Shown in pieces: positions 2,331-55,943 of a DNA stretch of 64,000 nt (its first letter is position 1; each line of letters begins with the position of its first letter). Below the pieces are notes generated by a model. The model was given only the letters and a program-made list of their open reading frames with translations, was not told the origin of the DNA and did no database searches. The position numbers were made by a program, and so were the translations under genes. The stretch is from Actinomycetota bacterium (GTDB lineage: Bacteria; Actinomycetota; UBA4738; HRBIN12), in contig DATHCP010000003.1 in assembly GCA_035490535.1 (NCBI GenBank), positions 4,467-68,466 of the forward strand, read 5' to 3'.

Positions 2331-3215
2331 ATGACCTCCAGCCTGCTCCTGGACGTCTCGAGCCTGATGTACCGGTCGTACTTCGCGCTGCGCCAGCCGG
2401 GCTTCTACGCGAAGGACGGCCGGCCGGTGGCGGCCGTCTACGGCTACCTCGACATGGTCACGCGCCTGCAGACCACGCGGCACCCCGATGAGATCGTGCA
2501 CGTCTACGACCACGACTGGCGCCCGATCGCGCGCACCGAGATCTACCCCGGCTACAAGTCGAAGCGCCAGCCCGACCCGGATGACCTCCCGGCGCAGTTC
2601 GGCCTGCTGCGGACCGTGCTGGACGGCACCGGGATGCTGCAAGCGCAGACCGAGGGCTGGGAGGCGGAGGACGCGATCGGCGCGTTCGGCGTGGACGCCC
2701 GCGACGACGACCGGATCGAGATCGTCTCGGGCGACCGCGACCTGATCCAGCTGGTGCGCGACCCGGTCGTGAAGCTCCTGTTCACCGTGCGCGGCGTGAC
2801 CGAGCTGCTCGAGCTGGACGAGGCCGGCGTGCTGACGAAGTACGGGGTGCCGGCGTCGCGCTACGGGGAGTTCGCGATCCTGCGCGGCGATCCGTCCGAT
2901 GACCTTCCGGGGGTGAAGGGGATCGGTGAGAAGACCGCCCGCACCCTCGTGAACGCGTTCGACTCGATCGACGACATGCTGGCGGCCGCGGCGCGCGGGG
3001 ACCCCGCGATCACGCTCTCGAACCGGACGAAGCTGCTGGCCTCGCGCGACTACCTCGACGCGATGCGGAAGATCGTGCCGATCAACGCCGACGCGCCGCT
3101 GACGCTGTGGGCCGGGGACCGCGATGACGCGGCGCTCGGGGAGCTCGCCGACGAGCTCGGGCTGGGCGGTCCGGTGCAGCGGCTGCTGGCGGCTCTCGAC
3201 GCGCCGACGGCCTGA
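2331..3215 (+). CDS. 5'-3' exonuclease (FEN/Pol I N-terminal nuclease-like, stand-alone)
   Basis: 294 aa. YPGYKSKRQP and the helix-3-turn-helix motif LPGVKGIGEKTA are characteristic of 5' nuclease domains. The size fits stand-alone 5'-3' exonucleases of actinobacteria. Confidence 0.85.
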   Translation: MTSSLLLDVSSLMYRSYFALRQPGFYAKDGRPVAAVYGYLDMVTRLQTTRHPDEIVHVYDHDWRPIARTEIYPGYKSKRQPDPDDLPAQFGLLRTVLDGTGMLQAQTEGWEAEDAIGAFGVDARDDDRIEIVSGDRDLIQLVRDPVVKLLFTVRGVTELLELDEAGVLTKYGVPASRYGEFAILRGDPSDDLPGVKGIGEKTARTLVNAFDSIDDMLAAAARGDPAITLSNRTKLLASRDYLDAMRKIVPINADAPLTLWAGDRDDAALGELADELGLGGPVQRLLAALDAPTA

Positions 3216-3950
3216 TCAGCCCGTCGCGGCGTCGTGGACCTGCCAGGTGGTCGCCTCTGCGCCCTTCACGCTCTCCGTCGTGTCCAGCACGATCCCGACG
3301 CTGCCGTCCTCGCGCCACATGCACGCGGCGGCCGTCGTGTCGTTCCCGGAGACCGGCACGCAGCGGTAGTCGGTTCCGTCGTGGGTCTCCGCGACGTCGC
3401 CCGTCCGGTCCACGGTGGCGCCGCTCTTCTCGATCCCGCCGACGAAGTCGTCGAAGAGCTGATCGGTCGACTCGACCGACCGGCCCGAGACCAGCATCAC
3501 CAGGAAATCGGGCTGCGCGCCGTTCCCGTACGCGCCGGCGACGACGTCCAGGTCATCGCGTGCGCCGATGTCCTTCATGTCCTTCTCGAAGTCCTTCGCG
3601 GACTGCGTCGTGAGGCGCGGGCGGCCCGCCACCGAGTCGGGGAGGTGCGCTCCGCCGGCGAAGAAGACCGCGTGGACCGCGAAGGCGGCCACCGCCGCCA
3701 CGGCGACCCCGATCAGCGCCTTGACGATCGAGGAGCCGCCGCCACGCGAGGTGGTCGGGGGCACCGCGGTGGGCTGGAAGGCGGGCTCGGGCTGCGGCAT
3801 CCGGCCGAAGCCGGGGATCCCGGCCATCCCGGGTCGGCCCGGCGGCGGGGGCGGCGGCACGAACCGCGCGTAGCACTTCCAGCAGAAGTCCGCCTCAGGG
3901 CCGTTCTCGGCACCGCACGACGGACAGGCACGCTTCTCGTCGACCTGCAT
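3216..3950 (-). CDS. Zinc-ribbon, proline-rich membrane-anchored protein (hypothetical)
   Basis: Start moved to the ATG at 3950 (MQVDEKRACPSCGAENGPEADFCWKC), which has a GAGAGGAAGGG RBS. It has an N-terminal CxxC...CxxC zinc ribbon, a PPPPPPGRPG linker, one TM helix (ALIGVAVAAVAAFAV) and an extracytoplasmic C-terminal domain. Confidence 0.55.
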   Translation of the reverse strand: MQVDEKRACPSCGAENGPEADFCWKCYARFVPPPPPPGRPGMAGIPGFGRMPQPEPAFQPTAVPPTTSRGGGSSIVKALIGVAVAAVAAFAVHAVFFAGGAHLPDSVAGRPRLTTQSAKDFEKDMKDIGARDDLDVVAGAYGNGAQPDFLVMLVSGRSVESTDQLFDDFVGGIEKSGATVDRTGDVAETHDGTDYRCVPVSGNDTTAAACMWREDGSVGIVLDTTESVKGAEATTWQVHDAATG

Positions 3951-7957: not shown

Positions 7958-9643
7958 TCAGGCCTCGGCCATCGGCACGCGCACGCCGCGCTCGCGCGCG
8001 ACCTCCTCCGCGTGCTCGTACCCCGCGTCGACGTGGCGGAGCACGCCCATCGCCGGGTCGTTCGTCAGCACGCGCTCGGCCTTCTCCCCCGCCTCCTCCG
8101 TGCCGTCGACCACGACGACCTGCCCGGCGTGGATCGAGCGGCCGATCCCCACGCCGCCGCCGTGGTGGATGCTGACCCACGACGCGCCGCTCGCCGTGTT
8201 CACCAAGGCGTTCAGCAGCGGCCAGTCGGCGATCGCATCCGAGCCGTCGGCCATCGCCTCGGTCTCGCGGTACGGGCTCGCGACGCTCCCGCTGTCCAGG
8301 TGATCCCGTCCGATCACGATCGGCGCGGTCAGCTCGCCGCTGGCCACGAGCTCGTTGAACCGGACCCCGGCGACCGCGCGTTCGCCGTAGCCGAGCCAGC
8401 AGATCCGGGCCGGCAGCCCCTGGAACGCCACGCGTTCTCCGGCCATCGCGAGCCAGCGCTGCAGGCGCTCGTCGTCGGGGAACAGCGCAGCCACCGCGCG
8501 ATCGGTCGTCGCGATGTCCTCGGGATCGCCCGAGAGCGCCGCCCAGCGGAACGGGCCCTTGCCCTCGCAGAACATCGGGCGCACGAACGCCGGCACGAAC
8601 CCCGGATACGCGTAGGCCCGGTCGTGCGCGAGCCCGCCCTGCTCGGCGCCCCCGCGCAGGTTGTTGCCGTAGTCGAACGCGATCGCGCCGGCTTCCTGGA
8701 ACGCCACGATCGCATCCACGTGCGCGGCCATCGAGTCGAACGACCGGCGCTCGTAGCCGGCCGCGTCGGCGGCCCGCAGCGCGTCGGCCTCGGCGACCGA
8801 CAGCCCCGACGGCACGTAGCCCCCGAGCGGATCGTGGGCGCTGGTCTGGTCCGTGACGACGTCGGGGCGCCAGCCGCGCCGCACGAGCTCCGGCAGCACG
8901 TCGGCGCAGTTGCCGAGCAGTCCGATCGACACCGCCTCGCGCGCGTCGCGGGCATCCTCGGCCCACCGCAGGGCCTCGTCGAGGTCGGCGGTCTCGCGGT
9001 CGAGGTACCGCGTCTTGATCCGGCGCTCGATCCGCGAGGGATCCACCTCGACGCAGATCGCGACGCCGTCGTTCATCGTCACGGCCAGCGGCTGCGCGCC
9101 GCCCATCCCGCCGAGCCCGCCCGTCAGCGTGATCGTGCCGGCGAGCGTCCCGCCGAAGTGCTGCGAGGCACACTCGGCGAACGTCTCGAAGGTCCCCTGC
9201 AGGATCCCCTGCGTGCCGATGTAGATCCACGAGCCTGCGGTCATCTGCCCGTACATCGTCAGGCCGAGCGCCTCGAGGCGTCGGAACTCGTCCCACGTCG
9301 CCCACTCCGGCACCAGGTTCGAATTCGCGATCAGCACGCGCGGCGCCCATGGGTGGGTGCGCAGCACCCCGACCGGCTTGCCGGACTGGACCAGGAGGGT
9401 CTCATCGTCGCGGAGGCGCCGCAGCTCGCGCACGATCGCGTCGAAGGCCGCCCACGAACGGGCCGCGCGGCCGGTTCCGCCGTAGACCACGAGGTCGTCG
9501 GGACGCTCGGCGACGTCGGGGTCCAGGTTGTTCATCAGCATCCGCATCGCGGCTTCCTGCGGCCAGCCGAGGCAGGTCAGCTCGGAGCCGCGGGGCGCGC
9601 GGACCTCGCGGGCTCCGGCGGTCGTCGACGTCACGCGTCTCAC
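7958..9643 (-). CDS. hutU: Urocanate hydratase
   Basis: 561 aa. [42 protein letters not shown] and the NAD-binding region are characteristic of urocanase. Confidence 0.9.
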
Positions 9644-45190: not shown

Positions 45191-46156
45191 CTACTCGAGG
45201 CCGTAGAGGCGGCGGGCCGCCGGCGTCATCCGTGCGAGCTCGGACGCCGGGATCGCCGGGGGTCGGTGCTCGGGCTCCGCGTCTCCACGCCGGAAGAACT
45301 TGCGCCGCCCGACCATCGCGGGGGGCTCCGGCTTCGGGGGTCGGGGGACCGACGGGTGCCGAAGTCCCTCGGTGACCTCGGCCGCGGGATGCGCCTCCGG
45401 AACCGTTGGACCTCGCCGCAGCCCGTCACCAACCCCATCACGTCGTTGACGTTCCTGAACTGCATCCCTCAGAACGTCGGGCTTTCGAACTTCTCGAACT
45501 TCTCGAACTTCTCGAACTTCGTGTTGCTGAACTTCCTGAACTTCCTGTGTTCCAACTTCGCGTACCTGGGGGGTTGGAGGTTGCTTCGCAACTTCCTCCG
45601 ACACCAACCTCCTCTCGACCTTCGCGAGCGCGCCCAGCAAGCGCGTCCGCAGGTCGGACGTCCGTCGGTCAGCTTCCTTGACCATCTCGTCCGTCGAGGC
45701 GTCGGCGCGGGAACGTCGGCCCACATCCGACAGATCGATGTCCAGCCGGAAGGGGTACCGGGCGGCCGGCGCCGGAGCGTCCCGCCACGCGGGACCGGGC
45801 GCATCCGCCAGCGGATCCTCCCGGTAGCGGCCGACGAATTCCAGCTTGCCGGGCTCCGCACCGATCACGCGGTCCTCGACCGAGGCGTCCACCAAGCCGG
45901 TCAGCAGCATCGGGCGGCGGATCCTGGGACCGGTACGGCCCTGGGAGCGCTCGGCCGCCTCGGCGCGGAGCTGCCGCTGCTCCTCATCGTCCCGCCGCCG
46001 GAACTCGGCCGCGAAACGCTCTGCGCCCCAACGAGAAGCCCGCATCCGGGCGTAGGTGAGGAGGGCAGCTTCGATGCCGTCGTCGTCCTCGGGCACGTCG
46101 GTGTCGTCGCCCCACGTGCGGAGGTCTTCCAGCCAGAACGCCCCCTCTGCCGCCAT
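45191..46156 (-). CDS. Hypothetical protein containing an in-frame EVR/QEV tandem-repeat segment
   Basis: Start tentatively at the ATG at 46156 (MAAEGAFWLEDL), so that it does not overlap the upstream cyclase gene. It has an acidic N-terminus, and its C-terminal part contains QEVQEVQQHEVREVREVREVR, encoded by the 9-bp repeats. No domain recognised. Confidence 0.4.
   Translation of the reverse strand: MAAEGAFWLEDLRTWGDDTDVPEDDDGIEAALLTYARMRASRWGAERFAAEFRRRDDEEQRQLRAEAAERSQGRTGPRIRRPMLLTGLVDASVEDRVIGAEPGKLEFVGRYREDPLADAPGPAWRDAPAPAARYPFRLDIDLSDVGRRSRADASTDEMVKEADRRTSDLRTRLLGALAKVERRLVSEEVAKQPPTPQVREVGTQEVQEVQQHEVREVREVREVRKPDVLRDAVQERQRRDGVGDGLRRGPTVPEAHPAAEVTEGLRHPSVPRPPKPEPPAMVGRRKFFRRGDAEPEHRPPAIPASELARMTPAARRLYGLE
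45486..45545. repeat. 9-bp tandem repeat (CGAACTTCT x3 plus one variant copy, then TGAACTTCC x2) in a local low-GC (about 45-58%) patch
   Basis: Directly visible: cgaacttctcgaacttctcgaacttctcgaacttcg...tgaacttcctgaacttcc. The repeat is in frame on the minus strand (EVR/QEV units). Local GC is far below the roughly 70% window average. Confidence 0.8.
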
Positions 46157-46190
46157 CCCGATGGGTATCGGCACGCGAGCGGGGGGACCT

Positions 46191-49100
46191 TCAGCCGGAG
46201 AGCCGATCCACCTCCGCGACCAGCGGATCCGCCCCGAGACCCGCGAAGACCTCCCGGGCGCGCGCCCGCCGGTGCGCCGCCTCGGCCCTGCCGAGGCGGC
46301 CCAGGCACCGGGCGGCGCCCAGCAGGGCACCGCCGGTGGCCGGCACGTGCCCGTAGTCGGCCCATCCCTCGGCCGCCTCGTCGAACAGGGCCGCGGCGCC
46401 CTCGTCGTCGCCGTCCGCCTCGGCGAGGGCGGCCCGCGCCGTTGCGACCGAGAGCAGGTGGCGGCGGGTGAACGTCCTCGCCCGCTCGAGGAGTCGCCGC
46501 GCGGCGTCCACGTCGCCGGCGGCGATACACAACCGCACGAGGTCGGCGATCGAGCCTTCGAGGTACCAATCGAGACGGATCTCCGTCATCGCCTCGAGCT
46601 CGGCGACGATCGCGAGCGCGTCCTGCGGCCTGCCGTCGCGCAGCGCGACGAGACCGGCCGTCACGAACGCCGGCACGACCACCTGGGCGTCGCGGAGTTC
46701 GCGACCGACCACGACCAGGTCCTCGGCGGCCGCACGCGCCTCGTCGAGGCGGCCCCGCCACAACAGGACCTGCGTGCGCCAGGGTGTGGTGAGCCCCGCG
46801 GCGTACCGCCCACCGACCTCGTCGGCGTGGCGGAGCACGTCGTCCGCGATCCGCAGCAGCTCATCCCACTCCCCCGCGTCGAACAGCGGGCCGAGGCTGG
46901 TGGTCCAGCAGCCGACGAGCATCTCGCTGAGCGCCCGGTGCTCCGCGAGTGCGGCGCCGGCCGCCGTCGCCTCGAGCGCCGGCGCGGGCCCCTCGGCGGC
47001 CCACAGCACCTCGGCGAGGATCAGCAGCACGCGCGCGTTCTCGCGGGACAGCCCGAGCCGCTCGGTCAGCTCTCGCGCTTCTCGGAGGTCGTCCAGCCCG
47101 CCGAGGTCGCCCAGGTAGCACCGGGACATGCCCCGGTAGGACAGCGCGCGCGGCCGGCTCGCCTCGGCGCCGAGCTTCCCGACGAGCTCCAGCGCGCGCT
47201 CGGAGACCTCGATCGCCTCCTCGAAGTGCCCGGTCAGCAGGTGGTCCGAGGCGATCGACGCGTAACAGTCGGCGAGCTCCGGGCCGGGCGGCTCGGCCTC
47301 GAGGTCGGCCACCGCCTGCGCGAGCAGCTCCCGCGAGCCGGCGGTGTCGCCTTGTTCCCAGCGGACGGTCGCCAGCCAGTTCTCCGCGGCGCCCGCGACC
47401 AGCCGGTCGCCGTTCGCGCGTGCGGCGGCGATCACCTCCTCGTAGGCGGCGCGCGCCTCCGGATAGCGGCCTCGATAGAACGACGCCTCCGCCTGCGCCG
47501 CGAGGATCGCCGCGCGCTCAGGCGCCTCCGCCGGCAGCGTCGCCAACGCGCGGCCGAACGAGGCGTACGCGCTGTCGACGTCCAGGCTCATCTGGCGCTC
47601 GCCGGCCATCACCCAGTACCGCCGTGTGGCGTCCTCGAGGTCGCCGACATCGGTGCGGCCGGCCGAGCGCAACAGCTCCAGGGCGCGGTCGTGATGGAAC
47701 GCGAGGACCTCGGCTTTGTCCGAGACGCGCTCGCCGGCGATCCCCTCGATCCATGCCGCCGCCGCGACGTGCTTCGCCGCCCTGGGCTCGCGCGGGATCT
47801 GGCCGTACGCGACGTCGCGGATCAGGGCGTGCGAGAACGCGTACTCGTGCTGATCCCGGATCGAGGACTCGCGCGAGCGCCGGACCAGCTCGCTCCGCAC
47901 GAGCTCGTGCAGGCGGGCCTCGACATCGGCCGGATCGGCGCCGCCGATCGCGGCCAGCGCGCCGGACCAGAAGACCTTCCCGACCACCGAGGCGTCCTGC
48001 AGCAGGAACTTCTGCTCCACCGGCAGCGTGTCCAGGCGCGCCGCGATCAGGGCCTGCAGGCTCTCCGGCGGCGTGATCTCCGGATCGCCCCCGCCGGCCG
48101 GTCCCACGAACATCCGGGCGAGCTCCTCGGCGAACAACGGGTTGCCGCCGGCGCGTTCGATCAAGGCGCCGCCGACCGCCGAGACCGTCTCTGCCGGCAG
48201 CAGCGAGGCAACGAGGCTCCGCGTGTCGGTCTCGCTGAGCGGCGCCAGCGACACCGTGCTCGCGTTGCGCGTGCCGCCGCCCCAGTTCGGCACGCGATCG
48301 AACAACTCCGGCCGCGCCGAGCACAGGATCAGCATCGGCCCGACGCTCCATTCGACGAGGTACTCCACGAACGCGAGCAGCGCGTCGTCGGCCCAGTGCA
48401 GGTCCTCGAGCACGACGACGAGCGGCCAGTGCGCCGCGACCGCCTCCAGGAACCGGCGCCAGGCGCTGAACGCCTCGGTGCGATCGGCCCCCTCGGACTG
48501 CGGCTCGTCCAGTCCGATCAGCGGCGCGAGGCGTCCCCGGACCCAGCCGCGCTCGCCCGGATCGTCCACGACCGCCTCGACCGTGGCGGTCAGCTTCGCG
48601 CGGGCCTCGGCGGCGTCGTCCGATTCGAGGATGCCGGCCTGCGCCTTCACGACCTGCCCCAGCGCCCAGAACGTCACGCCCTCGCCGTAGGACAGGCTCC
48701 GCCCCTGCCGCCAGGCGATCACCTCGGGAAGGTCGTCGAGGTAGGTGAAGAACTCGCGGATCACCCGGCTCTTGCCCACGCCGGGCTCGCCCATCAGGGT
48801 CACCAGCTGCACCGAGGGCTCGCGAACCGCGCGGGCGAACGTCCGCTTCAGCAGCTCGAGCTCGTCCTCGCGGTCGACCATCGGGGTCGAGCTCCGATCG
48901 AGCATCTCCGCGCCGAAGCGGCTCCGCGCCGATCGCGCGACCCAGATGTGCAGCGGCTTCGCCTTGCCCTTGACCTCGACGGGTTCGACCTCGTCGAAGT
49001 CGAAGGCCTCGGCCGTCAAGCCGTGCGCGCGCTCGCCCACGATCACGCCGCCGACGGGCGCGACCGTCTGCAGCCTGGAGGCGGTGCTCACCACGTCCCC

Positions 49101-49535: not shown

Positions 49536-50483
49536 CTAGGCCGGCTCGGCCACCCAGCGCATCGGGTCGCCGGCCCCGAGGTCCTCCACCCCGGCGTCGA
49601 TCAGCGCGCCGGCCACGAGCGTGCGCCGGTGCGCGGCGAACGTCAGGACGTGCGCGATCATGCCGCCGTAGGTGAAGACCTCCGGGTCCTCGCAGATCGC
49701 GTCCACGAAGGTCTCGTCCAGGCGCCCCTCGTCCCCGACCGTCCGGACCCGCTCGAGGAAGGCGGATCCTTCCCGGTCGAGGCGTGCCCGCATCGATGCG
49801 ATCGACTCATGCTGCTCGACGTCCCAGTCGTACGGTCGGCCGTCGATCGCCGCGTTCCACATCGCCATCTGCCCGACCAGCCGCGACAGGAGCGACCGCA
49901 ACGTCGGATCGTCGTCGACCCCTTCGACCGAGATCCGGATCGGCTCGTCGAGCTGCGCGTCGCTCAGCGTGCCGGCACGCGTGATCATCTCGCCGACGAG
50001 CCAGACGTGGTGCTCCACCATGCGGTTCAGCAGGTCCATCGGACCCTCCTTCGTTCGTGCGGGCAGCCGCAGGCTGCCCGGCGGATGGAAGTGCACGCCG
50101 CTCGGCGCGTCCAACTGGAACCGGCGGGGCTCGCGTCGCCACGCGGCGGGCGCGGCGCCGTAGGAACGGGCGAAGGCCCGCGTGAACGCCTCGTTCGAGC
50201 CGTAGCCGGCCTCGATCGCGACGTCCAGGACGGAGCGATCCGTCGTCACCAGCCGGTAGGCGGCCCGCTCCAGGAGCACCCGCCGGCGGAACGCGCCCGG
50301 CGGCTCACCGGCCGTCGCCGCCACCACGCGATCGAGGTGGTACCGCGAGAGGTGGACGCGGGCGGCAAGGTCGGCTCCGGAGGCCTCGTGATCGTCCAGG
50401 GCCGAGGACAGGACCTCGACGAAGGAGCGGAAGGTGTCGGTCGCGGTGCTCACGTCCCCATCCTCGTCGAGTCGCCCGTTCAC
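49536..50483 (-). CDS. AraC-family transcriptional regulator fused to a DinB/YfiT-like C-terminal domain
   Basis: 315 aa. The N-terminal HTH_AraC region is LSRYHLDRVV...LDVAIEAGYGSNEAFTRAFARSYGAAP. The C-terminal region of about 170 aa has a four-helix-bundle-like His-containing segment (VEHHVWLVGEM...). It is divergent from the putative RiPP operon. Confidence 0.75.
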   Translation of the reverse strand: MNGRLDEDGDVSTATDTFRSFVEVLSSALDDHEASGADLAARVHLSRYHLDRVVAATAGEPPGAFRRRVLLERAAYRLVTTDRSVLDVAIEAGYGSNEAFTRAFARSYGAAPAAWRREPRRFQLDAPSGVHFHPPGSLRLPARTKEGPMDLLNRMVEHHVWLVGEMITRAGTLSDAQLDEPIRISVEGVDDDPTLRSLLSRLVGQMAMWNAAIDGRPYDWDVEQHESIASMRARLDREGSAFLERVRTVGDEGRLDETFVDAICEDPEVFTYGGMIAHVLTFAAHRRTLVAGALIDAGVEDLGAGDPMRWVAEPA

Positions 50484-50524
50484 GGCTTGATCGGCGTTGC
50501 GCTTCCCGCGGAACCGACCTCCGA

Positions 50525-50553
50525 TTGACCCCCCGGGCAGCGCCGACTAGCGT
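50525..50553 (+). promoter_or_regulatory. Candidate sigma70/SigA-type promoter (TTGACC-17 nt-TAGCGT) for the precursor-methyltransferase operon
   Basis: TTGACC at 50525-50530 and a TANNNT-type -10 (TAGCGT) at 50548-50553 lie about 30 nt upstream of the ATG at 50583, which carries a GGGAGGGGAG RBS. This is sequence inspection only. Confidence 0.35.
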
Positions 50554-50582
50554 TCCCTCCGAGCGCAGCGGGAGGGGAGCCC

Positions 50583-50873
50583 ATGTCGAAGGCAGATGAC
50601 GACGAGGTCTCACTCGTCGACTTCGTGAACGACCTTGCCGACGATCCGGAGCTGGAAGCGCTCTTCGATCTCGAGCCCATCGCGGTGATGATGGAGCGCG
50701 GCCTGAGCGTCGATCAGCAGGCGCTGCTGATGGGCGGCACCGCCGGCGAGATCCGCGACGAGCTGAACCGCGAGCTCGAGAGCAGCGACGCGACCGGCGC
50801 GGTCGCGTTCGTGATCAAGATGCTGAAGCCGGTCGTCATCAAGATGAAGCCGGCGCCGGGTGGCGACCACTGA
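50583..50873 (+). CDS. Candidate RiPP precursor peptide (acidic helical leader plus hydrophobic core with duplicated VIKM(L)KP motif); putative split-borosin substrate
   Basis: 96 aa with a strong RBS. The leader is MSKADDDEVSLVDFVNDLADDPELEALFDLEPIAVMMERGLSVDQQALLMGGTAGEIRDELNRELESSDATG, and the core is AVAFVIKMLKPVVIKMKPAPGGDH. Its stop overlaps the start of the downstream TP-methylase-fold gene. Confidence 0.55.
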   Translation: MSKADDDEVSLVDFVNDLADDPELEALFDLEPIAVMMERGLSVDQQALLMGGTAGEIRDELNRELESSDATGAVAFVIKMLKPVVIKMKPAPGGDH

Positions 50874-51618
50874 GCGGCCCGTCACCGGCTCCCTGACGAT
50901 CGTCGGCTCCGGGATCCGGCCGGGGCTGCACACCACGAGCGAGGCGCGGGCCAGGATCGTGCGCGCCGACAAGGTCCTCTACCTGCTCGCCGAGCCCGCT
51001 CCCACCACGTGGATCGAGAAGCTCAACCCCTCGGCCGAGTCGCTGACGCATCTGTACGAGTCCGACCGCACGCACGACGAGGTCTACGAGGCGCTCGTGG
51101 AGGCGATGCTCGTTCCGGTCCGTGCGGGACTCGACGTCTGCATGGTGACGTACGGCAACCCCGCGGTGTTCGACGAGTCCTCGCACGAGGCGGTCCGGCG
51201 GGCGCGCGCCGAGGGCTATCCGGCGAAGATCCTTCCGGGGGTCTCGGCGCTCGACTGCCTGTTCGTCGACCTCGGCGTCGACCCCGGCCGCCACGGGCTG
51301 CAGACCTACGAGGGGTCCGACTTCGCGCTCGGGGACTTCACGCCGAACGTGCGCGTGCCGCTGGTCCTGTGGCAGATCAGCGTGATCGGGAACACCCGCA
51401 CCGGCGGCTCCGTGAACGTCGACGGGCTGCGCGTCCTCGCCGATCGGCTGGCCGAGCACTACGGCGCCGACCACGAGGTGACGATCTACGAGGCCACCCC
51501 GTTCCCGGTCGGCCGCCCGCTGATCGAACGCTGTGCCGTGCGCGCGCTGCCCGAGGCGGGCGTGACCGGGCTCTCCACCCTCTACGTGCCGCCGCTCGTG
51601 GTTCGGGCGGCCGGCTGA
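50860..51618 (+). CDS. Tetrapyrrole-methylase-fold SAM-dependent methyltransferase, OphMA/SonM-like (putative peptide backbone alpha-N-methyltransferase)
   Basis: 252 aa with a GTG start 14 nt inside the precursor ORF. The motifs SLTIVGSGI, GLDVCMVTYGNPAVF, ILPGVSALDCLFVDLGVDP, GLQTYEGSDF, LVLWQISVIGN, EHYGADHEVTIYEA and GLSTLYVPPL align, by my recollection, with the borosin N-methyltransferase catalytic domain (OphMA: GLDVVGVFYGHPGVF, LPGVSAEDCLFADLCIDP, CLTYEASDF, LVLFQVGCVGI, EYGAEHPVVHY, VSTFYIPP). Membership of the TP_methylase fold is secure. The borosin sub-assignment is inference. Confidence 0.65.
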   Translation: MATTERPVTGSLTIVGSGIRPGLHTTSEARARIVRADKVLYLLAEPAPTTWIEKLNPSAESLTHLYESDRTHDEVYEALVEAMLVPVRAGLDVCMVTYGNPAVFDESSHEAVRRARAEGYPAKILPGVSALDCLFVDLGVDPGRHGLQTYEGSDFALGDFTPNVRVPLVLWQISVIGNTRTGGSVNVDGLRVLADRLAEHYGADHEVTIYEATPFPVGRPLIERCAVRALPEAGVTGLSTLYVPPLVVRAAG

Positions 51619-51742
51619 GCGAGGCGGCGGCTGCGGCGCACCACCGGGCTTCGCGCGGCTGGGCGGCAGCGGCCTCTCGGGAGATGCCTGGCGCTCCTAT
51701 ACTCGCGGCCTGAGCCAGCCGGCGTCCCGAGGAGGACTCGTC

Positions 51743-52012
51743 ATGCCCCAGATCATCGTCACCGCGGCGGTCAACGACGTCGAGGAGTGGTTGAAGTTCA
51801 AGGCCGAGATGGTTCCCGCGATGTCGTCGGTCGCGTCGGACGGGGCCAGTTACGTCGCGGCGGATGGCAGCAACCAGGTCGCCAGCACGTGGGACGTTCC
51901 CGACATGGAAGCCTTCCAGGCAGCCCAGGGCTCCTTCTCTGCGGAGCTGGCCGAGATGGCGGAGCGAGCAGGCATGATCCGCTCGACCATGGTGGTGTAC
52001 GTCAAGAAGTAG
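51743..52012 (+). CDS. Small hypothetical protein (89 aa), possibly independently transcribed
   Basis: It has an excellent RBS (GAGGAGGACTCGTC ATG), a TATACT -10-like hexamer at 51698-51703 and a soluble acidic protein sequence (MPQIIVTAAVNDVEEWLKFKAE...). No domain recognised. Confidence 0.5.
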   Translation: MPQIIVTAAVNDVEEWLKFKAEMVPAMSSVASDGASYVAADGSNQVASTWDVPDMEAFQAAQGSFSAELAEMAERAGMIRSTMVVYVKK

Positions 52013-52069
52013 CCCTCCGTCTCTGCTCGGGACCGCGCGACGATCGGTGCGTGAGACGAGCTGCACCGC

Positions 52070-52425
52070 GGGGAGTAGCTCTGGGTCGAGGAGCGGATCA
52101 CCGAGCTGCTGGACTCCGACGACCGCCGCTCGCTCTTCGCGCAGGCGTGTGCGTCCGGAACCAGTCGAAGTTCTACGACCGTTTCGACGCGGTGGTCCTG
52201 CTCAGCGCGCCTGTGGACGTGATCCTCGACCGGGTCGCGCGCAGAACGACGAACGACTACGGCGGGTCGCCGGTGGAGCGAGCGATGATCGTCGATGACC
52301 TCGCCACGTTCGAACCGCTGCTCCGGCAGGGGTGCACGCACGAGCTGGACGCGAGCCGGCCGTTGGATGAGCTCGTCGCCGACCTGATCGAGATCGCATC
52401 CGATGACGACGGCACCCGCGTGTAG
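52070..52425 (+). pseudogene. Frameshifted remnant of an NMP-kinase/AAA-type P-loop kinase (lacks the P-loop N-terminus)
   Basis: Two adjacent frames read LWVEERITELLDSDDRRSLFAQA and then CVRNQSKFYDRFDAVVLLSAPVDVILDRVARRTTNDYGGSPVERAMIVDDL...ELVADLIEIA. This is kinase-like C-terminal sequence with no Walker A, and the preceding part of track ORF 51787..52425 is shadow over the 89-aa gene. Confidence 0.4.
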
Positions 52426-52455
52426 GCTCGCTCGACCCCAGGACGGGAGGACGTC

Positions 52456-53130
52456 GTGAAGCTGCTCCTCACCTCCGCCGGCATCAAGAACCCGAGCATC
52501 CAGGACGCGCTGGTCGGCCTCCTGAGCAAACCGATCGCCGAGTCCGACGCCCTTTGCATCCCCACCGCGGGATACGGGCATCCGATGGGAACCCCGGCCG
52601 GCGCATGGCGGTTCATCACCGGCAACGCCGGCACCCCCATGTGTGAGCTGGGGTGGAGGTCGGTCGGGGTGCTGGAGCTGACGGCCCTGCCCAGCATCGG
52701 GGAGGAGCGTTGGATCCCTTGGGTCCGCGATGCCGACGTCCTGCTGGCGAACGGCGGCGACGCCCTCTACCTCGCTCACTGGATGCGGGAGTCCGGGCTG
52801 GCCGATCTCCTGCCGTCCCTCGACGGGACGGTATGGGCGGGATTGAACGCCGGGAGCATGGTGATGACGCCCCGTATCGGAGTGGACTTCATGGGGTGGG
52901 AGCCGCCCGGCGGCCTCGACGAGGCGCTCGGGTTCGTCGACTTCTCGATCTTCCCCCATGTGGACCATCCGGATCTTCCCGAGAACACGATGGCTGCAGC
53001 CGAGCGATGGGCGGCGGGCATCCCCGGGCCCGCATACGCGATCGACGACGACACCGCGATCGCGGTGACCGAGGGCTCCGTCGAGGTCGTCTCCGAGGGC
53101 CAGTGGAAGCGGTTCACTCCGACCGGATAG
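52456..53130 (+). CDS. Peptidase E / S51 family (type 1 glutamine amidotransferase-like) dipeptidase
   Basis: GTG start with a GGGAGGACG RBS. MKLLLTSAG, VLLANGGDALYL, AGLNAGSMVMTP (the nucleophile Ser region) and FSIFPHVDH (His) parallel E. coli PepE (LLLLSNS, IIIVGGGNTFQL, GWSAGANLACP, INPHF). Confidence 0.75.
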   Translation: MKLLLTSAGIKNPSIQDALVGLLSKPIAESDALCIPTAGYGHPMGTPAGAWRFITGNAGTPMCELGWRSVGVLELTALPSIGEERWIPWVRDADVLLANGGDALYLAHWMRESGLADLLPSLDGTVWAGLNAGSMVMTPRIGVDFMGWEPPGGLDEALGFVDFSIFPHVDHPDLPENTMAAAERWAAGIPGPAYAIDDDTAIAVTEGSVEVVSEGQWKRFTPTG

Positions 53131-53139
53131 CGTGAGCCG

Positions 53140-53790
53140 GTGGAACGGTCGGAGCGGTCCTTCTGGGCCACGTGGCACGACGACTACGACGACCCGGGCT
53201 CGGACCTCTCCCAACGTCTGATCGCCGTCCAGCGCCGACTCTCCGACGCGATCGACGCGCGGGCTGGCGAGGTCCGCGTCATCAGCGCCTGCGCGGGGCA
53301 GGCACACGACGTCCTCGGCGTGCTCGAGGGCCACCCGCGTGCGTCGGAGGTGCACGCCTGGCTCGTCGAGTCCGACGATCACAACGCCGGGGTCGCGCGT
53401 CGTCGAGCCGAAGCCGCGGGCCTGACGCAGGTTCGCGTGCTCCACGCGGACGCCGGGATCACCGGCACCTACCGGGACGCGGTGCCCGCCGACGTCCTGC
53501 TGCTCTGCGGGATCTTCGGCAACGTCACCGACGAGGACCTCCGTCGGCTCGTGACGAACGCCTCGAGGCTGTGTGCACCGCACGCGACGGTGTTGTGGAC
53601 GCGGCATCGGCGTGAGCCCGATCGGTCGGAGGACGTCCGAGCGTGGTTCGACGAGGCGGGCTACGAGGAGATCGCGTTCGATTCGCCCGGACCGGACCGG
53701 TTCGCCCTGGGGACGGTCCGCCTGACGGCGCCGCCCTTGCCGTACACACCCGATCTCCGGCTCTTCGCGTTCAGGGTGTGGGAGGGGTGA
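53140..53790 (+). CDS. Putative class I SAM-dependent methyltransferase
   Basis: 216 aa, 10 nt after the S51 gene. VISACAGQAHDVLGVLE, VLHADAGI and DVLLLCGIFGNVTDEDL resemble a Rossmann-like MTase core. The assignment is moderate. Confidence 0.5.
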   Translation: MERSERSFWATWHDDYDDPGSDLSQRLIAVQRRLSDAIDARAGEVRVISACAGQAHDVLGVLEGHPRASEVHAWLVESDDHNAGVARRRAEAAGLTQVRVLHADAGITGTYRDAVPADVLLLCGIFGNVTDEDLRRLVTNASRLCAPHATVLWTRHRREPDRSEDVRAWFDEAGYEEIAFDSPGPDRFALGTVRLTAPPLPYTPDLRLFAFRVWEG

Positions 53791-53824
53791 ACCCCAAGAC
53801 CCCGGGGCACGCTAACGTTCGGCG

Positions 53825-54238
53825 GTGCGCAACGTCCGGCAACGCCTCTTGATCGGGCGGATCCTGGCGGTAGTGGGCTTCGTGATCGTCACGCTCGGAA
53901 GCGCGATCCCGCTGGTCGCATACGACGCCGGGGGCTTCCCGAGCCAAGGGGTGCAGGTGGAACGGGTCGCGACGGTTCCTCCTATCGGGATCCTTGTCGT
54001 GATCTTCATCGCGGGCGTGCTCCTCGCGGTGGCCAAGGGCAAGCGCTCCGTGTGGCCCATCGTCATCGGGATCGGCATGTGGCCGGTCATCGATTTGGAA
54101 GCCAGGAAACCCAGCCTCGTCCCGACGCCGGGGGCTGGAAGGCTCATCGTGCCCATCGGCATCCTCGTCGCTGCTGTGGGACTCCTGTTGCTTCCGTCCC
54201 CAGACCGCGGAGTCACTGCCTCGAACCTCGGCTCGTGA
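53825..54238 (+). CDS. Hypothetical membrane protein
   Basis: 137 aa with a GTG start and four predicted TM segments (ILAVVGFVIVTLGSAIPLVAY, IGILVVIFIAGVLLAV, WPIVIGIGMWPVI, LIVPIGILVAAVGLLLL). Confidence 0.4.
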   Translation: MRNVRQRLLIGRILAVVGFVIVTLGSAIPLVAYDAGGFPSQGVQVERVATVPPIGILVVIFIAGVLLAVAKGKRSVWPIVIGIGMWPVIDLEARKPSLVPTPGAGRLIVPIGILVAAVGLLLLPSPDRGVTASNLGS

Positions 54239-54306
54239 TCGCGCGGGTCGGGCGCCACTCAAAGACCTCCCTCCTCGCATCGTCGGGGGCGTGAGACGAT
54301 CGGGTT

Positions 54307-54747
54307 GTGATCCGGAAACGCTGGGACTCCGACGATCGCGGGCGCGGCGTGGCTTCGGGAGATGCCTTCGCCGAACCCGTAGCGGAGTTCGGCGAGCTGA
54401 TGGCCCAACCCGGTTGGATCGCGGAGGAGCCCGAAGCACATCTCCTGCCACACCTCGTGGCCGCATGTGCCGAACCCGACTCGACCCTCGAACTGACCTC
54501 CACGGAGACCGTGGACGACATCTTCGTCGTGGAGCTCACCGCCAAGGAGTCAGCGCGCTCGACGGGTGAACTCCGGCGCGCCGCCGTCGGCCTCCTCGCG
54601 GCGTTCGCCGAGGAGGCCACCTTCATCCGGCAGCGCCAGGACGGCGATGTCCTCGAGTTCGACGTGGCCACCGGAACAGCTCCTGCAGAGGCCAGGTTCG
54701 CGCCGCACGGGCATCTCGTGCGTCTCCGGATCCGTCCTCGGGTCTGA
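54307..54747 (+). CDS. Hypothetical protein
   Basis: 146 aa with a GTG start and acidic, soluble-looking composition. No motif recognised. It could be a shadow ORF. Confidence 0.35.
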   Translation: MIRKRWDSDDRGRGVASGDAFAEPVAEFGELMAQPGWIAEEPEAHLLPHLVAACAEPDSTLELTSTETVDDIFVVELTAKESARSTGELRRAAVGLLAAFAEEATFIRQRQDGDVLEFDVATGTAPAEARFAPHGHLVRLRIRPRV

Positions 54748-54767
54748 ACGCGCTCCGAGCGGCACGC

Positions 54768-55109
54768 TCAAGGAACGATGCAGAAGATGTTGACCGTGAC
54801 GTGCTCGCCCGACCGAACCGTCACGGTTCGAGGCCGCCCGCACGGATCCTTCCCCCCGTTGATGTGCGGGCTGCTGGCGGTGAGCGTGTAGGTGCCCGGC
54901 GAGACGGCGACGGAGAAGCTGCCGTCGGAGCCCGCAGGAACGGACCCTCTGCCCGAGATGTGGATCGTGCCCGGGAGCGGGGTCGGGAGTCCGGGCGCCG
55001 GTCCGCCCTCCCGGTAGTAGTGGCCGGAGATCGTGGTCGTCGACCGGTGACACGCGGGAGCGAACAGAGCCAGCGTCAGAACGAAGCACGCGCAGAGTAC
55101 GGTCCGCAT
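54768..55109 (-). CDS. Secreted/lipoprotein-like beta-sandwich (carboxypeptidase-regulatory-like) hypothetical protein
   Basis: Start at the ATG at 55109 (MRTVLCACFVLTLALFAPACHRS), a signal with a possible lipobox. The beta-rich region is SGRGSVPAGSDGSFSVAVSPGTYTLTAS. Confidence 0.45.
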   Translation of the reverse strand: MRTVLCACFVLTLALFAPACHRSTTTISGHYYREGGPAPGLPTPLPGTIHISGRGSVPAGSDGSFSVAVSPGTYTLTASSPHINGGKDPCGRPRTVTVRSGEHVTVNIFCIVP

Positions 55110-55141
55110 GTCCCGAAGGTCATGCCTCCAACCCGGGAACG

Positions 55142-55624
55142 GTGACAGGTCCCACGCCGCGAGGCAACGAACGGCCTGCTGTCCGGCGGCGGTTGCTCGC
55201 GGACCGCACATCGGCCTACGGTATCCCTGTGGCCATCGAGCCAAAGACCGAGATCGGGGAACGGGTCACATCACGCGCGTTCGTGATCGGGCTCATCGTC
55301 ATCACACTCGTTGCTGGTCTCGTCGGCTACGCGATCGGGTCCGGACACGCGAAGACGCAGGAGCGCCACGGTACGGCCTACGTCGGCAACCGGATGGCGA
55401 GCATCAGGTCGGGGAACCGCTACTACGGCGTCGAGGCGAGCGTCCCCTGGTTCGACCGATCGGGGACCTTCCACGACGACGGATGGCCGAGCTGCCTCGG
55501 CGAGGCGGGCGGCGAGGTCCCCGTCACCTTCGGCCTGGCCCCCGTGTCGCCGCCGAACGCGGGCCTGACCTTCGGGGCCGTCACGTTCATCGATTGTCGA
55601 CCGGGCCAGCAGCGAGGCATGTGA
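55142..55624 (+). CDS. Hypothetical membrane protein
   Basis: It has one TM helix (AFVIGLIVITLVAGLVGYAIG) and then a soluble domain. The start is uncertain, with an internal GTG near 55229 possible. GC is locally reduced. Confidence 0.35.
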   Translation: MTGPTPRGNERPAVRRRLLADRTSAYGIPVAIEPKTEIGERVTSRAFVIGLIVITLVAGLVGYAIGSGHAKTQERHGTAYVGNRMASIRSGNRYYGVEASVPWFDRSGTFHDDGWPSCLGEAGGEVPVTFGLAPVSPPNAGLTFGAVTFIDCRPGQQRGM

Positions 55625-55631
55625 GCCGGCC

Positions 55632-55664
55632 GCACGGGGTGAGGTCGTCGACCCCACCCCGTGC
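55632..55664. terminator. Candidate bidirectional hairpin between convergent genes
   Basis: GCACGGGGTG-aggtcgtcgacc-CACCCCGTGC has a 10-bp perfect stem and an internal palindromic loop (GTCGAC). It lies between the stops at 55624 (+) and 55680 (-). U-tracts are weak, as is usual in high-GC genomes. Confidence 0.35.
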
Positions 55665-55679
55665 TTCCGGCCTTCACGG

Positions 55680-55832
55680 TCAGTAGCCGAAGCCGCCGCC
55701 CGCGCCTGCTCCGCCTCCACCGTGGTGCATGAACACCAGGTAGATCGCGAAGTACACGACCGCGCCGACCGCCAGGTAGATCCCGAGCCAGCGCTTCCAC
55801 CGCCGGCCGTAGCCGGATGCCTTCTGTGCCAT
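55680..55832 (-). CDS. Small membrane protein (50 aa), not in ORF track
   Basis: Translation is MAQKASGYGRRWKRWLGIYLAVGAVVYFAIYLVFMHHGGGGAGAGGGFGY. The ATG at 55832 follows CAGGGAGG about 6 nt upstream. It has a single TM helix and a Gly-rich tail. Confidence 0.45.
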   Translation of the reverse strand: MAQKASGYGRRWKRWLGIYLAVGAVVYFAIYLVFMHHGGGGAGAGGGFGY

Positions 55833-55943
55833 CGTTCGCCTCCCTGTTCGCGGAACTTCGCTCGTGGGGTACTACCGGCGGACGAGGCGAACGGATCACT
55901 CGCGCGCCTGTGGATCGGCTGAGAGTTCAGGAACCGGACGGGC

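Follow-up and report, generated by a model that had tools for sequence, protein, structure and literature searches.

[quoted passage not shown] We place the pair among the type IV split borosins on the basis of its architecture, the adjacency of the two genes, and homology. An earlier note on this DNA, made from the letters alone, had described the peptide as a borosin-type precursor. That description is borne out by the neighboring 252-aa protein, a homologue of SonM and OphMA, and by a leader that resembles the borosin-binding domain (BBD) of SonA. In the syntenic clade to which the window belongs, the core is evidently a tandem duplication of a cassette that is the signature of the whole subfamily. 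To our knowledge, ribosomal peptides acquire backbone N-methyl groups solely by the borosin route, and backbone N-methylation is prized for the protease resistance and membrane permeability it confers.

Precursor gene and methyltransferase

The precursor ORF begins with ATG, preceded by the Shine-Dalgarno-like sequence GGGAGGGGAG, and its translation ends in ...SSDATGAVAFVIKMLKPVVIKMKPAPGGDH; AVAFVIKMLKPVVIKMKPAPGGDH is the C-terminal end of the peptide that holds both cassettes (Table 1). The last 24 residues occupy positions 50799-50870 and the stop codon 50871-50873, so that the repeat region lies where the earlier note had put it, with its start, given as 50800, one base late. Pfam and NCBIfam searches with the precursor returned nothing usable, a sub-threshold match to the IniB N-terminal model being disregarded, and promoter and terminator scans across 50380-51800 found none.

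Table 1. Positions of the precursor gene, its parts, and the linked genes in the window
Feature	Positions	Strand	Basis
Precursor peptide gene, type IV split-borosin-like, 96 aa	50583..50873	+	ORF, GGGAGGGGAG upstream, orthologues of 70-73% identity
Leader, residues 1-66, predicted five-helix borosin-binding domain (BBD)	50583..50780	+	Profile and predicted fold
Linker SSDATGAVA, residues 67-75, from BBD helix 5 to cassette 1	50781..50807	+	Family-wide variation in length and sequence
Core cassette 1, FVIKMLKP, residues 76-83	50808..50831	+	Corresponds in alignment to the family's single C-terminal motif
Core cassette 2, VVIKMKP, residues 84-90	50832..50852	+	Insertion relative to single-cassette relatives (alignment A3)
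C-terminal tail APGGDH	50853..50870	+	APGGG in L001/L003, single A in L006
Borosin-type alpha-N-methyltransferase (putative), 252 aa	50860..51618	+	Pfam TP_methylase, phmmer PDB matches
Class III nucleotide cyclase - AAA_16 ATPase - TPR protein, 1097 aa	46191..49484	-	Pfam and neighborhood

The internal repeat FVIKMLKP / VVIKMKP on which the earlier note was built is present in the translated ORF and also at the DNA level, where CGTTCGTGATCAAGATG (50806-50822) and CGGTCGTCATCAAGATG (50830-50846) are identical at 15 of 17 positions, the two copies being offset by one additional CTG (Leu) codon. This identity adds little, since the shared ATC, AAG, and ATG codons are the favored ones in high-GC DNA, and we rejected it as a sign of recent duplication. 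Local self-alignment of the whole peptide revealed no excess over chance, with 1444 of 2000 shuffles reaching an equal or higher score; when only the 24-residue core was shuffled, the observed score was reached in 453 of 20000 cases (2.3%). An exact 4-mer recurring within 10 residues was found in 1.2% of whole-peptide and in 0.4% of core-only shuffles. Judged from this precursor alone, the repeat therefore stands barely above chance. We count it as more than chance on the grounds of comparison: the repeated unit is the signature motif of the family, its second copy is an insertion, and that copy is retained in the intact syntenic orthologues.

When the profile of the leader (alignment A1, five orthologues) was compared with the PDB, the best seven matches were all SonA chains, with E-values of 0.01-0.02. 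An AF2 model of the precursor, built from a shallow alignment and of poor overall confidence (pLDDT 56), places helices at residues 11-20, 22-30, 32-39, 43-50, and 54-66; pLDDT is 73-79 at residues 11-40 and falls to 57 by residues 51-60. A Foldseek search with this model against 350,542 PDB chains returned SonA BBD chains as its first 25 matches, with probabilities of up to 0.98 and target-normalized TM-scores of up to 0.76. The corresponding E-values are about 1, as expected for a domain of 50 residues. By profile and by predicted fold, the leader thus resembles the SonA BBD. About 10 residues separate helix 5 from the first cassette, a spacing like that in SonA, in which the BBD comprises residues 1-53 and the first methylation site is L63.

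The methyltransferase gene starts with a GTG that falls among the final codons of the precursor gene, the two overlapping by 14 nt. Its product matches Pfam TP_methylase (PF00590; 7e-19), and phmmer searches against the PDB align it over its full length with SonM (8e-49), OphMA (~1e-45), and MroMA (3e-37); every one of the 25 PDB matches with E<=0.001 belongs to the borosin N-methyltransferases, whose TP_methylase fold is distinct from that of the tetrapyrrole and YabN enzymes. N-methyltransferase activity of the enzyme is assumed from this homology. The signature motifs of borosin methyltransferases have been given as YGHP and DCLFAD (Imani et al. preprint). The window enzyme has YGNP and DCLFVD, within TYGNPAVF and SALDCLFVDLG, and His and Asn alternate at the third position of the former motif among 23 aligned homologues. 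A total of 1068 homologues were found at E<=1e-10.

For SonM, roles have been assigned to two catalytic tyrosines (Y58 and Y71), to cofactor residues, and to a lock formed by W166 and Q167 (PMC8429565). In the alignment of 23, the equivalents of Y58 and Y71 are invariant, that of Y93 is present in 22, and F99, W166, and Q167 are conserved. R67 behaves differently: the R67A variant of SonM is inactive (PMC8429565), and the corresponding residue is His in the window enzyme and in 14 of the 23 homologues, within a surrounding loop that is 3 residues shorter (methyltransferase residues 70-75, window positions 51067-51084). An Arg lies two positions upstream of this column in 19 of the 23. In the clade of the window's methyltransferase, the "top lock" may be built in another way.

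Relatives of the precursor and the doubled core unit

Word-indexed protein searches with the precursor returned 5 and 23 proteins. The family became visible through an exhaustive profile search of 1.84 billion representative proteins, which yielded 44 small peptides, 70-95 aa long, that share the leader of the window precursor. A genome search with the precursor profile found no relatives, and genomes were therefore reached via the methyltransferase. This gave 39 species-level loci. Most of the hosts are uncultured soil bacteria of the Actinomycetota, Gaiellaceae, and Thermoleophilia, and a small number are archaea or Gammaproteobacteria. In 25 of the 39, an ORF encoding the leader immediately precedes the methyltransferase gene, and the arrangement is the same in L001, L006, and L046-L049. 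In all, about 80 related peptides were collected, nearly all of them encoded directly upstream of such a methyltransferase and most with a single cassette.

At the C-terminus of these peptides, a run of hydrophobic residues leads into I/V, K/R, often M, any residue, and P, a pattern that can be written as hydrophobic-hydrophobic-I-K/R-M-x-P. Single-motif examples are ARVFLIKMRP, AIVFVIKMSP, VAVILIKMAP, VFLIKMRP, and VILIKMAP; further core endings include AIVFVIKMSPIPR, FVIKMSPIPR, YVIRMG, HVAYVIRMG, FMIKMK, and FVIFMIKMK. A tail like APGGDH is missing in most related peptides. The earlier note had considered the Lys residues inside the core unusual. They are so next to the borosin cores described in the portion of the literature available to us, which are aliphatic, polar, or acidic; within the subfamily, on the other hand, a basic residue at this place is the rule, and Lys/Arg in the core is one of its hallmarks.

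In alignment A3, cassette 1 of the window precursor corresponds to the single motif of the family, and cassette 2 is an insertion. The syntenic orthologues share the gene order helicase, two ORFs, cyclase, peptide, methyltransferase, RF-1-domain protein, RNHCP, and LigD, and every one of them with an intact frame retains the second IKM-x-P. The two-unit core of L006 is YVIKMLHVIKMSPA, with the C-terminus AVYVIKMLHVIKMSPA and HVIKMSP as the counterpart of cassette 2; that of L001 and L003 is FVIKKAIHIKMSPAPGGG, with the C-terminus AFVIKKAIHIKMSPAPGGG and the counterpart IHIKMSP. The residues that join the two units differ freely from locus to locus (MLKPV, MLH, and KAIH). These two-unit precursors are 52-73% identical to that of the window, and the methyltransferase of L006 is 78% identical to the window's. 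In the next group out (methyltransferases P0012, P0015, and P0019, 71-72% identical), the three loci sampled have single cassettes or IK-IKMK. The comparison of orthologues proposed in the earlier note thus finds the VIK...IKM-x-P units conserved and the number of cassettes varying, from one in most peptides to two or more, which indicates that the duplication of the family's core unit is real and has been retained.

Doublings also occur in other lineages, as in YIIVRLHMIIVRR, YVIVRVIVR, IIVRVIVR, and YIIVHSIVHII, and these arose several times independently. A distant multi-cassette relative was found in L019, a Thermoanaerobaculia MAG, where a 191-residue stop-to-stop frame (2438-3013) contains a BBD precursor from about residue 15; its PVI[RQK]K unit recurs in multiple copies (KPVIRKPVIRKPVVQKPVIKK...), and the frame also has an extended tail rich in Lys and Ala. 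In L046 (827-1528), two tandem single-cassette precursor genes, ending in ...ARVFLIKMRP and ...DRVYLIKMRP, stand ahead of one methyltransferase gene; here the duplication evidently sits at the level of the gene and not within the core. In the precursor of L016 (2444-2980), the core YIIVHSIVHIIFV precedes a tail rich in His, HKHGHKHHHHHDHHSAHTHEDHED, that hints at metal binding. Eight separate stretches of the 754-aa protein P0129 match positions 10-37 of the leader profile, and this may be a multi-BBD or repeat protein. The L001 methyltransferase gene (8266-9022) and the L043 precursor gene (2372-3475) are frameshifted in their MAG contigs, which may reflect long-read or assembly errors instead of pseudogenes.

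The second unit has been lost in one sister lineage. The precursors of L004 and L005 and the representative protein P0126 end in AVA[FL]V[SA]RRRSSSR, the first two through a shared 1-nt deletion, located in the Ile codon of cassette 1 (GTG-TCAAG; L004 about 935-1011, L005 5930-5988), which turns the core into AVAFVSRRRSSSR. Since the two sequences differ by substitutions, come from different projects, and still share an identical 1-nt deletion, we rejected an assembly error as its source. Three later substitutions separate L004 from L005 after the deletion: in the new frame, two are synonymous and one is non-synonymous, while in the old frame all three would be non-synonymous, one of them destroying the Lys of the second cassette. 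Small as these numbers are, they would fit selection in the new frame. Cassette 2 is consequently dispensable at least in this lineage, which may represent either a decaying system or one with a re-invented basic core.

Gene neighborhood and the role of the second unit

The gene for the 1097-aa neighbor encodes a protein with Pfam matches to Guanylate_cyc (4e-23), AAA_16 (2e-19), TPR_12, and TPR_MalT. Of the 45 related loci, about 29 have a homologue next to the precursor and methyltransferase genes, and so do L048 and L049; loci that carry it include L001, L006-L018, L029, L033, and L046-L049. In close loci it lies upstream and divergent and is 57-80% identical to the window protein, and in distant loci it lies downstream and is 34-38% identical. 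The linkage spans Actinomycetota, Gaiellaceae, and Thermoleophilia, and the cyclase-ATPase-TPR gene is likely to be functionally linked to the pair, which suggests a connection to cyclic-nucleotide signaling. GGDEF cyclases have been reported, as yet without explanation, in 56% of split borosin clusters (Imani preprint), an association that runs parallel to that with a class III cyclase in the clade of the window. Beyond the cyclase gene, at 45485-45547, the window contains a 9-nt tandem repeat, TCGAACTTC (4 perfect copies, about 7 degenerate), which encodes EVR/EVQ units in a minus-strand ORF (45191-46330) with conserved hypothetical homologues in L001 and L006.

A far-reaching reading of this linkage would make the N-methylated core peptide a signal and not an antibiotic-type product. 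The TPR sensor of the adjacent class III cyclase-STAND ATPase-TPR protein would read it, the three genes would form a peptide-to-cyclic-nucleotide module, and the number of cassettes would tune the valency or affinity of the ligand. Consistent with this are the linkage itself, the further cyclase or cNMP-binding genes found directly downstream in relatives, the GGDEF association, and the lack of the cyclase gene in exactly the two loci with a frameshifted core, L004 and L005. We nonetheless regard the module as an unlikely proposal.

Downstream of the pair, the surroundings are variable. A block of 4.3 kb (about 51.7-55.9 kb; 51700-55900) contains an 89-aa ORF, a 134-aa ORF, an S51 peptidase gene (52456-53130; Pfam 6e-15), a Methyltransf_25-like gene, and membrane ORFs; a search of the 45 related loci turned up no counterpart to any of its genes, and it looks like a replacement or an insertion. 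Directly after the methyltransferase gene, the nearest relatives have a gene for an alpha/beta-hydrolase-cyclase fusion (L001 9043-10380, L006 7042-8379), and L007, L047 (2328-2729), and L048 have one for a cNMP-binding protein. Upstream, the AraC gene (49536-50483) has a counterpart in L002 alone, which is a partial and nearly identical copy of the window locus. The S51 peptidase, the AraC regulator, the Methyltransf_25-like gene, and the 89-aa ORF were each considered as cluster members and rejected for lack of conservation. Across the 45 related loci, no protease or exporter is conserved with the precursor/methyltransferase pair.

By analogy with SonM/SonA, the five-helix leader would dock on a dimer of the SAM-dependent methyltransferase, which would modify backbone amide nitrogens of the C-terminal core, proceeding from its N- to its C-terminal side. 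Each cassette would be offered to the enzyme as a separate methylation module, and the number of N-methyl groups would be roughly doubled on one cationic, hydrophobic C-terminal peptide. Two equivalent modules are plausible in light of work on SonA, in which engineered duplications of the core gave tris- and tetrakis-N-methylated products whose methyl groups lay where predicted in each of the repeats (PMC11751858, section 2.7). Duplications of 9-15 residues gained methyl groups in both repeats, and those of 5-7 residues were poor substrates, with most of the peptide left unmethylated (PMC11751858). The natural spacing of the repeats in the window precursor is 8 residues, which makes methylation of both cassettes plausible but uncertain. 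SonA itself is methylated at L63 and I65 in YLVIS, and the first site is set by a bulky residue at i-1, Y62 in SonA and F, L, or I in homologues (PMC11751858). The sequence A-F-V-I-K in the window resembles this context, and two registers would be possible. The earlier note had started from the premise that borosins are methylated on hydrophobic runs; this holds, though not exclusively, as types VII-IX are methylated on Asp/Glu.

This same rule of site selection lends itself to a different account of the second unit, in which cassette 1 is the sole methylation site and cassette 2 together with APGGDH forms an unmethylated extension that tunes processing or the properties of the product. Cassette 1 is the unit that aligns with the family-wide motif, and it has an aromatic residue ahead (A-F-V-I-K, compared with P-V-V-I-K in cassette 2), where a large i-1 residue would set the first site as in SonA (PMC11751858). 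The C-terminal residues of SonA affect iterative activity, and methylation of its short duplications (5-7 residues) was poor or off-pattern (PMC11751858); in addition, the AF2 model has a core helix only at residues 71-80, at low confidence. However, the longer SonA duplications were methylated in both repeats (PMC11751858), and all intact orthologues keep I-K-M-x-P in the second unit while the linker between the units varies freely, which is the pattern expected if the second unit is itself recognized. An unmethylated extension is, in our assessment, possible but decidedly the less probable account. The repeat might also be a neutral accident without functional meaning, produced by replication slippage or by chance similarity in a short, low-complexity sequence; RiPP cores are highly variable, the self-alignment of the whole peptide falls within the range of the shuffles, and the frameshifted lineage has lost its second unit. 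We consider this improbable, since the repeated unit is exactly the conserved motif of the family, two units persist among precursors with 52-73% identity, and similar doublings have several independent origins.

The earlier note had also linked the pair to the S51 protease, and a core cut at its Pro-delimited boundaries into two small products would be the consequence of such a link. The S51 gene does share the strand of the methyltransferase gene and lies 0.84 kb downstream of it, and K-P closes both cassettes. Yet tblastn with the S51 protein of the window found a homologue in none of the 45 related loci, not even in the syntenic ones, where other genes such as that for the alpha/beta-hydrolase-cyclase take its position, and two unrelated ORFs separate it from the methyltransferase gene. 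The sole named relative of the S51 protein is the PepE dipeptidase, a weak match far below the model cut-off. Characterized enzymes of family S51, such as PepE and cyanophycinase, are exopeptidases that cleave Asp-X bonds, and the core has no Asp ahead of its final DH. With the genomic link lacking support and the specificity of S51 enzymes pointing elsewhere, cleavage into two products by this peptidase is very improbable. The reading we prefer remains that of a split borosin precursor with two methylation modules.

Relation to known borosin systems

Among the entries listed in the RODEO borosin precursor dataset, there are no IKM-type cores and no leader motifs of this family. A subfamily with Lys/Arg cores was not found described or characterized in the part of the borosin literature available to us, although the survey of Cho et al. 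2022 (Biochemistry 61:183) may list this class of core. The clade of the window is apparently an uncharacterized and abundant one, from uncultured soil bacteria. The rules by which borosin enzymes select their sites are still unclear, and natural, compact, and conserved Lys/Arg cores with one, two, or multiple cassettes are ready-made substrates with which to study them; such substrates could show if cationic cores are tolerated by split borosin enzymes and if methylation is multiplied when a core is duplicated. The strict linkage to the cyclase-ATPase-TPR gene constitutes a second, independent case of borosin genes traveling with second-messenger cyclases and bears on the natural role of bacterial borosins.

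The closest known system is SonM/SonA of Shewanella oneidensis, the source of shewanellamide A. In both cases a discrete methyltransferase of ~250 aa, with equivalents of Tyr58, Tyr71, and Tyr93, adjoins a gene for a small, separate precursor that carries a five-helix BBD at its N-terminus (predicted in the window) and a short hydrophobic C-terminal core ~10 residues past helix 5, and a nucleotide cyclase is encoded in the cluster, GGDEF in Shewanella and class III in the window. In contrast to the YLVIS of SonA, the window core is cationic, conforms to h-h-I-K-M-x-P, and is present twice, and the peptide ends right after it. The window enzyme also differs from SonM in having His at the position of R67, in a loop shorter by 3 residues, and YGNP in place of YGHP. 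Further differences are the order of the genes, precursor then methyltransferase with overlapping stop and start, and the hosts, which are uncultured soil Actinomycetota.

More distant borosins share single features with the pair. OphMA, which gives rise to omphalotin in the fungal type I system, has a homologous methyltransferase domain (~1e-45) and acts iteratively, from N to C, in methylating a hydrophobic core at the C-terminus; unlike in the window, enzyme, BBD, and core are fused there, the core is aliphatic throughout, and OphP macrocyclizes the product. Near-identical core repeats, each of them methylated, are found in the type V pair RceM/RceA and in fungal type II multi-core borosins. 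RceA, however, has ten copies of an acidic/polar unit of 11 residues, compared with the two cassettes of the window precursor. In type V the BBD is part of the methyltransferase and the precursor leader is short, whereas the window precursor carries the BBD itself; with 252 aa and an end-to-end alignment with SonM, the window enzyme has no extra domain.

With respect to the doubled core, the nearest parallel is artificial. In the SonA variants of Crone et al. 2025 (PMC11751858), as in the window precursor, a duplicated core follows a single BBD, the engineered duplications comprising 5 to 15 residues. The window's arrangement differs from these in being natural and in having a spacing of 8 residues with a Pro between the units, just above the duplications of <=7 residues that made poor substrates. 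The doubled core of the window precursor is the natural counterpart of these published engineered duplications.
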